DNA of 44,586 nt, from positions 1 through 44,586 of the forward strand of contig JBFXDW010000001.1 in the NCBI GenBank assembly GCA_050180745.1, given 5' to 3'. Position numbers and translations under genes: made by a program. Of this stretch, positions 21,320 through 23,797 are shown piece by piece. The notes beneath the pieces are model-generated. The model was not told the DNA's origin. It ran no database searches and worked only from the letters and a program-made list of their open reading frames with translations. Numbering within the stretch: the stretch's first letter is position 1; each line of letters begins with the position of its first letter. Source of the stretch: Bdellovibrionales bacterium (GTDB lineage: Bacteria; Pseudomonadota; Alphaproteobacteria; UBA9219).

Positions 21320-22537
21320 TTACACGTTCTTTATAGCTTTTTGACCTGTAAACTCTTCCCAACGTTGGACGATAACATCGCAATATTTTGGATCCAATTC
21401 GATAAGCCGCGCCTGACGACCTGATTTCTCACAAGCGATCATCGTGCTGCCAGATCCGCCAAAACAATCAAGAACGATGTCACGGCTCTTACTGCTATTA
21501 CGAATAGCGCGCTCAACCAATTCAACAGGTTTCATCGTCGGATGCAAATCATTCTTCGTTGGCTTGTTAACAAACCAAACATCCCCCTGATCGCGCGCGC
21601 CGCACCAGAAATGATCCGTCCCTTGTTTCCATCCATAGAGGATAGGCTCGTACTGACGCTGGTAATCTGAGCGACCAAGTGTGAAGGTATTCTTCGCCCA
21701 GATCACAAATGTTGACCATTTGCCGCCTGCTGCAACAAAAACTTTTTGCAAGGTGTGAAGTTCGCTAGATGACATGCAAACATAAATCGCGCCTTTGCAA
21801 ACGGTCAGCATGTTAACGCAAGCGTCGTAGAGAAAGGTTTCAAACCCATCCCCTAAATTGTCATTCATGATGCGGCGGTCATTACCGCGCATCTTGTCCT
21901 TGGCGGCGTTGCCATAATCTACATTGTATGGCGGATCCGTAAACACCATATCAGCCAACGCCCCGTCCAACACGCGTTCAACATTTTCAAGAACGGTACT
22001 GTCTCCGCATAGCAGACGATGCTTGCCAAGAAGATACATATCTCCAAGTTTTGTCTTTGGTTCTATTGGTGCTTCGGGCACGACATCATCATCCGTCTGG
22101 CCTTCACCGAACCCGACATCTTCAAGTGCTTTTGCCAACTCTTCTTCACTGAAACCTGTCTTTTCCAGATCATAATCAAGTGCCATAAGATCTCGAAACT
22201 CAAGTTCAAGATATTCGTCATCCCATTCTGCCCAAGCCGCAGAGCGGTTCGCTATCAGCCGAAAGGCTTTAACTTGAGCTTCTGTAAGATCGTCTGCAAG
22301 AGCCACTGGTACGGTTTCCATACCCAGTTTTTGAGCGGCTTTAAGTCGCAGATGCCCATCAACTATCGATCCATCTGAACGAGCAACAATGGGGATGCGA
22401 AACCCAAATTCATGTATTGCGGCAACCATCTTGTCAATTACATGATCGTTTTTGCGCGGGTTCCTTGCATAGGGAATGAGTTTGTCGATAGGCCAAAGCT
22501 CAATATGATCCGCAATATTAAGTTCCAAAGAGGTCAT
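21320..22537 (-). CDS. ParB-N domain fused to an N6-adenine/N4-cytosine DNA methyltransferase (beta class)
   Basis: The start is set at ATG 22537 (MTSLELNI...). ParB box IPIVARSDGSIVDGHLRLKAAQKLG, catalytic MVFTDPPYNV, AdoMet motif VLDCFGGSGST. Confidence 0.9.
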   Translation of the reverse strand: MTSLELNIADHIELWPIDKLIPYARNPRKNDHVIDKMVAAIHEFGFRIPIVARSDGSIVDGHLRLKAAQKLGMETVPVALADDLTEAQVKAFRLIANRSAAWAEWDDEYLELEFRDLMALDYDLEKTGFSEEELAKALEDVGFGEGQTDDDVVPEAPIEPKTKLGDMYLLGKHRLLCGDSTVLENVERVLDGALADMVFTDPPYNVDYGNAAKDKMRGNDRRIMNDNLGDGFETFLYDACVNMLTVCKGAIYVCMSSSELHTLQKVFVAAGGKWSTFVIWAKNTFTLGRSDYQRQYEPILYGWKQGTDHFWCGARDQGDVWFVNKPTKNDLHPTMKPVELVERAIRNSSKSRDIVLDCFGGSGSTMIACEKSGRQARLIELDPKYCDVIVQRWEEFTGQKAIKNV

Positions 22538-23781
22538 TCTGTTCCGTTTTCTGTAATTGCTTGAGTTGCCAAAGTGCAAAACGCATATGCTGCTGCCAAA
22601 GGCACCACGCCGTTTCCACAGGTGCGGAGCCTGTCCACCCGACAGGCCATCCCATCAGCCATTCGACAAATAGAGGGTTTAAGACTGGCTGGAGTTCTTT
22701 CCCATCTGGCGTAGTCGTTTGGTGTTGGAGGCCAGGTTGATACGTCAAGGGATGTGCCATCATTGAAAGATTGACTTGTTTCCCGTTGGCTATCCTTTTC
22801 TGAATGCATGGGTTGGATAGATTTCCCCGTTCCCTGTAGTCCGTTGATTGAGGGGTTGGCCACGCTTTGCTGATCTCGTTCAGGCATGCCCCGTGATCGG
22901 GACTCGTACTGCCTGGCTCCCGCGCTCTTGGCGTTGGCCATTGATTTCGTGCTGCCCTGTAATCTTTTCCGTTTCTCGCCTTTTCCAGATCCTGCTTCGT
23001 GTAAGGAAAACCTTCCGGCTGCATTATTGTTTCGGCAAGGCTCGGCGTGCGAAGGACATTGCGTCCGTCCTTGCGGATCATCTTTTCTGGTGGTCTTGCT
23101 CTTGCGACAAGAGAGTCTGTCGCTGTTGCGGTCGGCCACATCACAGCACTGACTTCCAGTCGCCCCTTGGGGTTCCCATCCAAGATTTCCTTCTGTGATG
23201 CCCCGTTTGCCGAAGACACCCTTGCGGTAGGCCAAGATGAACAATCGTTCGCGTTTGTGCGGCGCACCCACTTCTTCCGCTGTAAACAAGCCCGCCTTAA
23301 CGCGGTAACCCATTCGTTGAAGGTCATCGTGGACTTGTTCGAACCCCAGCCGTAGATGTCCGCCAACATTCTCGAAGAAGCAGATGGGCGGTTTGATCTC
23401 GCGGACGATCCGCGCGACATCCGGCCAGAGGTGGCGCGGGTCTTTGTCTCCCAGTTTTTTTCCCGCAACGCTGAATGGCTGGCATGGATAGCCTCCATGA
23501 AGGATATCCACGAGGCCACGCCACGCTTTGCCTTTGAAGGTTTTAATGTCGTCCCAGACAGGCGCTGGATCCAAGGCCGCATCTTCCATCCGTGCCACGA
23601 GCGTGGACGCTGCGAAGCTTTCCCGCTCAACGTAACAAACAGTTCGGTATCCTGGCAGGGCAAGGTGCAGCCCAAGGTCGAGTCCGCCTGCGCCCGCGCA
23701 GAGCGAGAGTCCGAACAGCGCGCGCCTTTGCTTTGGGCATGCGTCATCGTCTCTGGCGGCAAGTAAAGCCAGACCATCCAA
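22534..23781 (-). CDS. DNA (cytosine-5)-methyltransferase whose middle (TRD) region looks frame-scrambled; possibly a pseudogene or recoded
   Basis: Frame A (415 aa) carries motif I LCAGAGGLDLG, IV GGYPCQPFS, VI FFENVGG, VIII PHKRERLFILA and X CGNGVVP. Its TGA overlaps the next ATG (ATGA). The middle 200 aa are low-complexity, whereas the overlapping frame B (22518..23777) encodes WPTATATD, WPTPRA, WPTPQSTD and NPLFVEWLMGWPVGWT. Confidence 0.7.
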   Translation of the reverse strand: MDGLALLAARDDDACPKQRRALFGLSLCAGAGGLDLGLHLALPGYRTVCYVERESFAASTLVARMEDAALDPAPVWDDIKTFKGKAWRGLVDILHGGYPCQPFSVAGKKLGDKDPRHLWPDVARIVREIKPPICFFENVGGHLRLGFEQVHDDLQRMGYRVKAGLFTAEEVGAPHKRERLFILAYRKGVFGKRGITEGNLGWEPQGATGSQCCDVADRNSDRLSCRKSKTTRKDDPQGRTQCPSHAEPCRNNNAAGRFSLHEAGSGKGEKRKRLQGSTKSMANAKSAGARQYESRSRGMPERDQQSVANPSINGLQGTGKSIQPMHSEKDSQRETSQSFNDGTSLDVSTWPPTPNDYARWERTPASLKPSICRMADGMACRVDRLRTCGNGVVPLAAAYAFCTLATQAITENGTE

Positions 23782-23797
23782 TGGGTACCTCTAAAGA

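Follow-up and report, generated by a model that had tools for sequence, protein, structure and literature searches.

The DNA studied here is a stretch of 44,586 nucleotides (the window) from the metagenome-assembled genome (MAG) of a Bdellovibrionales bacterium. Our subject is a prophage gene for a DNA cytosine-methyltransferase on its minus strand, which is about 1.25 kb long and open in two reading frames over its whole length. According to the listing of open reading frames (ORFs), frame A (22534..23781) encodes 415 amino acids from a TTG start and frame B (22518..23777), which is +1 relative to A, encodes 419 amino acids from an ATG start. The G+C content is 48.7% for the window and 55.4% for the methyltransferase gene. 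The features to which we refer are given below, with alpha and beta standing for the putative products of frames A and B and TRD for the target recognition domain.

23787..23792, minus strand: Shine-Dalgarno-like AGAGGT shared by both frames, 6 nt upstream of the TTG of A and 10 nt upstream of the ATG of B.
22534..23781, minus strand: ORF of frame A, putative alpha subunit of 415 amino acids, running from motifs I-VIII through an open linker of low complexity and a WPPxP...W module to motif X.
22518..23777, minus strand: ORF of frame B, putative beta subunit of 419 amino acids, co-extensive with A, matching phrog_1008 and with relatives in the databases.
23224..23781, minus strand: A-selected region with motifs I, IV, VI and VIII, over which B (MVWLYLPPE...) is open; divergence is highest at codon position 3 of A.
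22632..23231, minus strand: B-selected region with four WPT[AP] modules and the motif-IX-like LNPLFVEWLMGWPVGWT, over which A is a stop-free linker; divergence is highest at position 3 of B.
22600..22632, minus strand: motif X (RLRTCGNGVVP) in frame A, directly after the switch from B to A; synonymous variation follows A from RLR on in all loci.
22527..22541, minus strand: C-terminal QNDLF of B, lying across the stop of A, beta-clamp-binding-like and conserved as Q.[DSCE]L[FI].
22535..22537, minus strand: ATG of the downstream gene for a ParB-domain methyltransferase, forming an ATGA overlap with the TGA of A (from the sequence and the ORF listing).

The conserved motifs of a C5-methyltransferase are divided between the two frames. 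Frame A has motifs I-VIII as well as X, while in frame B there are the WPT[AP] modules of the TRD together with a motif-IX-like LNPxFVEWLMGWPxGW. The TRD and motif IX are not part of the polypeptide that holds I-VIII; motif X is in frame A, and the TRD and motif IX are in A+1. In frame A the catalytic motifs are visible as LCAGAGG (I), YPCQPFS (IV), ENV (VI) and RERLF (VIII), and the C-terminal end RLRTCGNGVVPLAAAYAF contains motif X. The match of frame A to the Pfam domain DNA_methylase (PF00145) is confined to residues 25-189 (E = 1.3e-35), TIGR00675 is matched with 103 bits (cut-off 100.65), and the match to phrog_363 spans residues 16-404. Residues ~190-345 of A are rich in Arg, Gly, Ser and Gln, and the same DNA read in B codes for the TRD, with the strings WPTARVSSANG, WPTATATD, WPTPRAREPG and WPTPQSTDYRERG as well as the motif-IX-like string listed above. 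Profile searches of Pfam and NCBIfam gave no model for frame B, and a profile search of the PDB sequences with frame B gave no meaningful match. Frame B is similar to phrog_1008 ('DNA methyltransferase'), with E = 1.5e-27 for the window and E = 1.3e-49 for a Paenibacillus frame B, the latter over profile positions 35-282 of 329.

These results bear out most of what an earlier note on this DNA had read from the letters: that both frames are open over the whole gene, that the motifs are split A-B-A, that the middle of A is of low complexity exactly where B has its TRD signatures, and that the TGA of A (22536-22534) overlaps the ATG (22537-22535) of the ParB-methyltransferase gene. As causes the note had offered compensating indels in a scrambled gene, assembly errors or recoding. 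The split stands and is not a matter of chance, but none of the three causes is the best explanation, as we argue in the following.

More than 100 independent loci share this arrangement of the two frames; they come from MAGs of Alphaproteobacteria, from chromosomes of Paenibacillus, from isolate phages and from 67 contigs of IMG/VR. When genomes were scanned with the catalytic motifs as seed, 39 alphaproteobacterial MAG loci and 10 Paenibacillus loci were obtained. Wherever the motifs could be located, which was in 45 genome loci, PCQ, ENV and GN[GA]VVP share one frame, with WPT[PA]/EWLMG in the frame +1 to it. Motif IX of B alone seeded a scan of IMG/VR, in which motif IV was also located in 69 loci; 68 of these have B at A+1. 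A second dual-frame copy is present in the genome of the window itself, a 1.79-Mb MAG of 145 contigs; it lies on contig C8 (L091:852-1968; A 852-1949, B 871-1968), is likewise followed by a ParB-domain methyltransferase gene and presumably sits on a second prophage. In the GenBank records of Paenibacillus larvae phages the two frames appear as two overlapping coding sequences, both called 'DNA-cytosine methyltransferase' (LEYRA_61/62). The same two frames, with only A annotated, are present in Klebsiella phage SAKp02, Rhodobacter phage RcMrWorf, Burkholderia phage BcepC6B and Edwardsiella phage eiAU.

Frame A has full-length homologues in the databases which include the odd middle region and share 54-69% identity. 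The earlier note had named such colinear alignment among the results that would count against its reading. The homologues do align in this way, yet they carry the same dual coding and colinear homology therefore does not make the gene ordinary; the variable tetrads MANA, MADA, LADT and VADR of frame A are synonymous spellings of WPTP in B. Also the premise that these motifs normally share one frame fails here, since hardly any of 260 word-indexed database relatives of the window TRD has PF00145 in its own frame. With a profile of B, 42,420 cluster representatives were retrieved at E<=1e-3, of which 25,580 remain at the stricter E<=1e-10, and distant B-type proteins were drawn from a library of 1.84 billion proteins. 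In the phylum the gene is patchy and mobile: a TRD search of 401 genomes gave three carriers. This sample was thus useless for an unbiased test of openness, and its place was taken by the IMG/VR scan with motif IX as seed. A DNA search of a phage collection with the window gene returned weak partial matches only and tblastn with the window TRD one record; the Paenibacillus B protein was the better probe.

The few relatives that deviate from this pattern are isolated records, either fused or truncated. In P0221 motifs I-VIII of A are in frame with the B TRD and motif X is missing, in P0144 the B TRD is in frame with motif X and motif IX is missing, and in P0186 the frame switches before motif VIII; L127 belongs to the same rare group. 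These records are either natural indel variants or sequencing errors. Furthermore, the number of WPT[AP] modules varies among the homologues (alignment columns 230-300; P0121-P0240) through indels in multiples of three, so that both frames are kept. The module WPTxRxSSANGASxKExxxGNPKxRLEV occurs at differing positions in different proteins, which suggests that the TRD units are modular and shuffled.

Divergence by codon position was compared pairwise for 33 loci. In the numbering of frame A it amounts to 0.22/0.14/0.37 from motif I to IV, 0.17/0.07/0.38 from motif IV to VIII and 0.19/0.11/0.38 for motif X. In the middle of the gene it is 0.31/0.29/0.51 in the numbering of frame B. The amino acid identity follows the same course, with 0.72-0.85 for A against 0.57-0.59 for B in the N-terminal part and 0.56 for B against 0.36 for A in the middle. 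Purifying selection switches from A to B and back to A along the gene. The first switch coincides with the end of motif VIII: there RERLFILAY of A is read over SSWPTARV of B (about 23224-23235). The G4/C4 run at 23161-23176, at which the earlier note had placed it, is ruled out as a switch point, as selection switches elsewhere. The second switch is found directly past GWT[D/E] of B, which overlaps RVDR of A; here the position proposed before (about 22630-22640) agrees with the pattern of synonymous variation.

An artefact or a decayed gene, in which compensating indels or homopolymer errors in a MAG have split an ordinary or dead methyltransferase gene, could be supposed for a window from a 145-contig assembly with a G4/C4 run in the middle of the gene. 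The frame relations, however, are identical in all the independent assemblies, complete chromosomes and isolate phages among them, and in the second copy of the same genome. The switch points are away from the homopolymer run, and both frames are under purifying selection. The comparative data refute this reading, to which we give practically no probability, and with it the assembly error and the dead or scrambled enzyme of the earlier note are excluded.

How surprising it is that both frames stay open can be estimated by permuting synonymous codons. When the middle 194 codons of the window gene were permuted synonymously for B, frame A acquired 6.4 stops on average and was open in 0 of 1000 permutations; in the actual sequence there is no stop. 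Permutation of the first 181 codons synonymously for A gave a mean of 1.4 stops in frame B and a probability of 0.16 that B is open, again with no stop observed. The suspicion that the double openness is improbable by chance, which had been voiced without a calculation, is thus borne out for the middle, with the value of 0.16 for the N-terminal part of B. Across the B-selected middle, frame A is stop-free in 40 of 43 genome loci, where 3-8 stops are expected from B-synonymous permutation. The same holds for 65 of 67 distinct viral loci, in whose choice frame A played no part; the expectation there is 3.5 stops on average, and the median probability of being open is 0.023 per locus. Conversely, frame B is stop-free over the catalytic region of A in the alphaproteobacterial loci, with 1-2 stops expected in clade 1 and 2.4-5.4 in clade 2. 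Double openness is real and not due to chance.

Synonymous sites are constrained as well. The divergence at fourfold sites is 0.37, 0.45, 0.47 and 0.50 within the gene (0.37-0.45 in the A-selected region). For the neighbouring ParB-methyltransferase gene, which is single-coding and of similar protein identity, it is 0.57 in the same 20 loci. In Paenibacillus the ORF of B begins only ~38 nt before motif IV, and the fourfold-site divergence of frame A falls from 0.59 upstream of the ATG of B to 0.24 downstream of it. Such a drop is what is classically expected where a second frame is functional.

It is very unlikely, in our estimate, that only one of the frames works, with A alone being, for example, a methyltransferase with a short TRD or a regulator-like remnant, and B an unrelated protein or an unexpressed shadow ORF kept open by codon bias. 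Such a view could refer to the databases, in which A alone is annotated almost everywhere, to the alignment of phrog_363 with the two ends of A as if the middle were an insertion, and to the long shadow ORFs that are possible in high-GC genes. But A has neither motif IX nor a conserved TRD, and the variation in its poorly conserved middle is synonymous in B. Frame B does have motif IX, and relatives carry it in one frame together with motifs VIII and X. The openness persists at 47-56% GC (Paenibacillus and the window), and the suppression of synonymous change together with the conservation of the termini of B at the protein level favours expression.

The termini of B deserve a closer description. 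In clade 1 the start region reads GAGGT-N5-6-TTG[A/G]ATGG, that is, the TTG of A and the ATG of B are 4 nt apart behind one Shine-Dalgarno sequence. In some clade 1 loci A uses an ATG 5 nt after that of B, and it is the ATG of B which is invariant. In the window the TTG at 23781 is the only start able to include motif I. Clade 2 has GTGTGG, with the GTG of B followed 2 nt later by the GTG of A. In Paenibacillus and phage Leyra a GAGAGG or GGGAGG is followed by a stop in frame B and then by the ATG, despite differing frame-A residues there. The distant B-type proteins all start with M-(x)-W-[LIV]-[YF]-[LIV]-P, and of the 36 viral loci that have this N-terminal motif, 33 show an ATG two codons ahead of the W. 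Judged from these sequence patterns, B appears to initiate independently of A.

At the other end, B extends 10-28 nt past the stop of A in most clade 1 loci and closes with [EDK]-Q-x-[DSCE]-L-[FI], after which 0-5 residues follow. Six different codons are used for the Leu of this motif, and the motif is retained where the DNA past the stop of A is intergenic. Of 113 B-type proteins in the databases, 38 have Q-x-[DSCE]-L-[FI] among their final 10 residues; none of 3934 internal windows contains it. The B protein of the window ends with QNDLFGT, and its relatives have QLDLF, QLCLI, QMSLF or QLSLI at or near the C-terminus (the loci are the window, L010, L011, L013-L019, L021-L024 and L027). The motif is clade-specific; other B clades end otherwise, for example with ...MECISQKIN. 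B thus seems to terminate independently of A, with a motif that is conserved at the protein level. The C-terminal consensus for binding of the beta clamp is QLxLF (PMC4549789), which the motif fits, and the tail of beta may bind the sliding clamp.

At the N-terminus we also observe that the first 20 residues of A (23722-23781, minus strand; MDGLALLAARDD..., GLALSAAGGD in relatives) resemble motif I (LSLCAGAGGLD) in degenerate form. This stretch also codes for the conserved N-terminus MVWLYLPPE of B, and in distant relatives W-L-Y-V-P-G of B overlaps the real motif I directly. The downstream gene for a ParB-domain N6/N4-type methyltransferase (21320-22537 of the window, minus strand) accompanies the dual-frame gene in many loci, the two being linked either through an ATGA overlap or by a start ~30 nt past the stop of A. 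At the overlap three frames are in use within ~20 nt.

We suggest that two co-extensive genes on the same strand encode one C5-methyltransferase as two polypeptides, and put the probability of this at roughly 0.7. A single ribosome-binding site would serve two starts 4 nt apart, the TTG of A and the ATG of B. The alpha subunit would be the large catalytic domain, with motifs I-VIII at the N-terminus and X at the C-terminus, joined by a linker of low complexity of ~155 residues. The sequence of this linker would be set by the other frame; it is presumably tolerated, but would have to stay open for motif X to remain attached. The beta subunit would be the small domain with the WPT[AP] TRD and motif IX. 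Its N-terminal region would overlap the catalytic motifs of alpha and its tail would end in the clamp-binding-like QxDLF. Alpha and beta could then associate non-covalently, as M.EcoHK31I, M.AquI and the experimentally split C5-methyltransferases do; we infer that both proteins are made and assemble together. The predicted division of labour between a large and a small domain matches the architecture of C5-methyltransferases. That B is a genuine small domain follows from Mycobacterium phage Jarcob, Streptomyces phage Samy and P0214, in which a B-type TRD with motif IX is contiguous in frame with motif X, and in Jarcob also after motif VIII.

Several points weigh against this proposal. Two start codons in different frames at a distance of 4 nt behind one Shine-Dalgarno sequence would be unusual. 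The AlphaFold2 models are uninformative, with a mean predicted local distance difference test score of 44.6 for B (alignment of 37 sequences) and 35.7 for A (18 sequences), and not even the catalytic fold, although known, was reproduced. The statistics per locus given above are not independent, since many loci share a phylogenetic background. Five loci, a minority subclade, have an interrupted linker: L023, L024 and L027 from the genomes and L095 and L096 from IMG/VR have 4-14 stops in frame A, which are shared among the first three and number 8 in L095 and 14 in L096. In all five, motif X is still in frame A, varies synonymously and looks conserved. A single alpha chain cannot be universal, and these loci need a third polypeptide, a frameshift or decay. 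They may use an internal ATG of frame A (in the MGNT/MGDA spelling of WATP of B) to make a separate piece with motif X. A difference in the genetic code was considered for the interrupted loci and ruled out, as the MAG REEB112 has an interrupted (L023) and an open (L037) copy.

The interrupted loci with their conserved motif X would suit programmed frameshifting, the form of recoding which we retain from the earlier note as the main rival. The ribosome would move by +1 immediately past motif VIII and by -1 immediately past GWT, yielding one A-B-A polypeptide, alone or beside the unshifted products. Only the A-B-A path restores the canonical order I-VIII, TRD, IX, X, and two single proteins do join the frames, P0221 (I-VIII of A with the TRD of B) and P0144 (B with motif X). 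Against it, neither junction has an X_XXY_YYZ heptamer or a +1 site with a stop or rare codon; the bases conserved there are those of the protein motifs. The zero frame does not close soon after the junctions, both frames being open over the whole gene. Frameshifting leaves unexplained why the linker of A is free of stops in ~95% of the loci and why B is open from the start of A onwards, with a conserved ATG and N-terminal motif and an end motif past the stop of A. No gene is known to us in which two shifts, one forward and one backward, both occur efficiently. Frameshifting is in our view an unlikely account, and we prefer two overlapping genes for the two polypeptides.

A more far-reaching version of this preferred reading would describe a very large family, across phyla, of C5-methyltransferases from phages and prophages, in which two same-strand genes of ~0.8-1.4 kb are both functional nearly throughout, including the N-terminus of beta overprinted on motifs IV-VIII of alpha, and are translated from one ribosome-binding site with starts 2-5 nt apart, one clade having acquired a clamp tether. 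We put this forward tentatively, with the odds somewhat against all of its parts holding together. As the layout is conserved in a very large family of genes, most of them mis-annotated, few same-strand overlaps in bacteria and phages are probably as long and as common as this one.

Prokaryotes are considered to have few long non-trivial overlaps, and annotation pipelines do not permit them. In the ~120 database entries for frame A that we have seen, 100-250 residues are a mere shadow of the real TRD, which lies in unannotated ORFs or in a 'hypothetical protein'; a prediction of specificity from the annotated A would miss it. With selection on both frames over ~1.25 kb of one strand and about 25,000 cluster representatives, the gene offers a natural system for studying the co-evolution of two proteins on one DNA. 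Initiation in two frames from one Shine-Dalgarno sequence, if true, would set the ratio of alpha to beta in a new way. The gain and loss of modular WPT[AP] units through indels in multiples of three suggest a quick retargeting of methylation specificity that leaves the catalytic subunit untouched. If the tail of beta does bind the clamp, anti-restriction methylation would be coupled to replication, and the tether would be an analogue in bacterial viruses of the coupling of DNMT1 to PCNA.

Long overlaps have been reported before in bacteria, namely antisense ORFs of 957 and 1536 nt in Pseudomonas aeruginosa (PMC8850804) and the 603-nt pop of enterohaemorrhagic Escherichia coli (PMC7103648). Like these, the present overlap is long, non-trivial and coding, with evidence of purifying selection. 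The reported ones are antisense, lineage-restricted and young, whereas ours is on the same strand, extends over ~1.25 kb and across phyla, and its products belong to one enzyme. In actinophages, an HNH endonuclease of the ShiLan type is nested out of frame in methylase genes, with the host frame stop-free across it (PMC11855218). That endonuclease is an inserted mobile homing element, in contrast to the second frame described here, which is part of the methyltransferase and covers the whole gene. The frameshift genes prfB, dnaX and the phage tail G/GT genes differ too, since the window gene has no conserved slippery site or stop/rare codon and is open in both frames. In the literature on overlapping genes, methyltransferases and phages we found no description of a co-extensive two-frame layout; two genes for cytosine methyltransferases are listed, with no further remark, in a paper on 48 phages of P. 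larvae.

Closer parallels come from C5-methyltransferases made of two chains. Large- and small-domain fragments of M.HhaI, M.BspRI, M.BsuRI and M.SssI reassemble non-covalently into active enzymes (PMC3404938). These are engineered splits of single-frame genes, and the window presents a natural overlap. The accounts in PMC2836561 and PMC3404938 name two natural heterodimers, M.EcoHK31I and M.AquI. M.AquI (CYCGRG; alpha and beta; Karreman & de Waard 1990) is split in the variable region (PMC3404938). Its motif X is in the small subunit, and the description in that source mentions no co-extensive overlap, unlike the window gene with motif X in the alpha frame and an overlap that is total. Among the relatives of our gene, Jarcob gp69/gp70 (L082) and Samy gp49/gp50 (L087) have a layout like that of M.AquI: the catalytic N-terminal ORF stops, and an ORF in the +1 frame carries the TRD, IX and X. 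Upstream of the annotated start of this second ORF, its frame has no stop for ~70-100 codons in both phages.

M.EcoHK31I (E. coli HK31; YGGCCR; Lee, Kam & Shaw 1995) is a close parallel in kind. It consists of two polypeptides that are both needed for activity (PMC2836561, PMC3404938). Its beta is a short ORF nested in another frame inside alpha and holds motif IX only, the predicted TRD being assigned to alpha. Compared by description, the window gene resembles it in that B lies in an alternative frame within or co-extensive with A, in more than 100 loci, and in the distribution of motifs, with I-VIII and X in alpha and IX in beta. It differs in the size of beta, which with ~419 residues is co-extensive with alpha, would start 4 nt from the start of alpha and has the whole TRD in addition to motif IX. 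The conserved WPT[AP] TRD is thus in frame B, and the middle of alpha is a less conserved linker of low complexity. A heterodimeric C5-methyltransferase with a nested subunit gene is therefore a kind already known. What is notable is the total overlap, the presence of the whole TRD in the second frame, the putative sharing of one ribosome-binding site and the size of the family.

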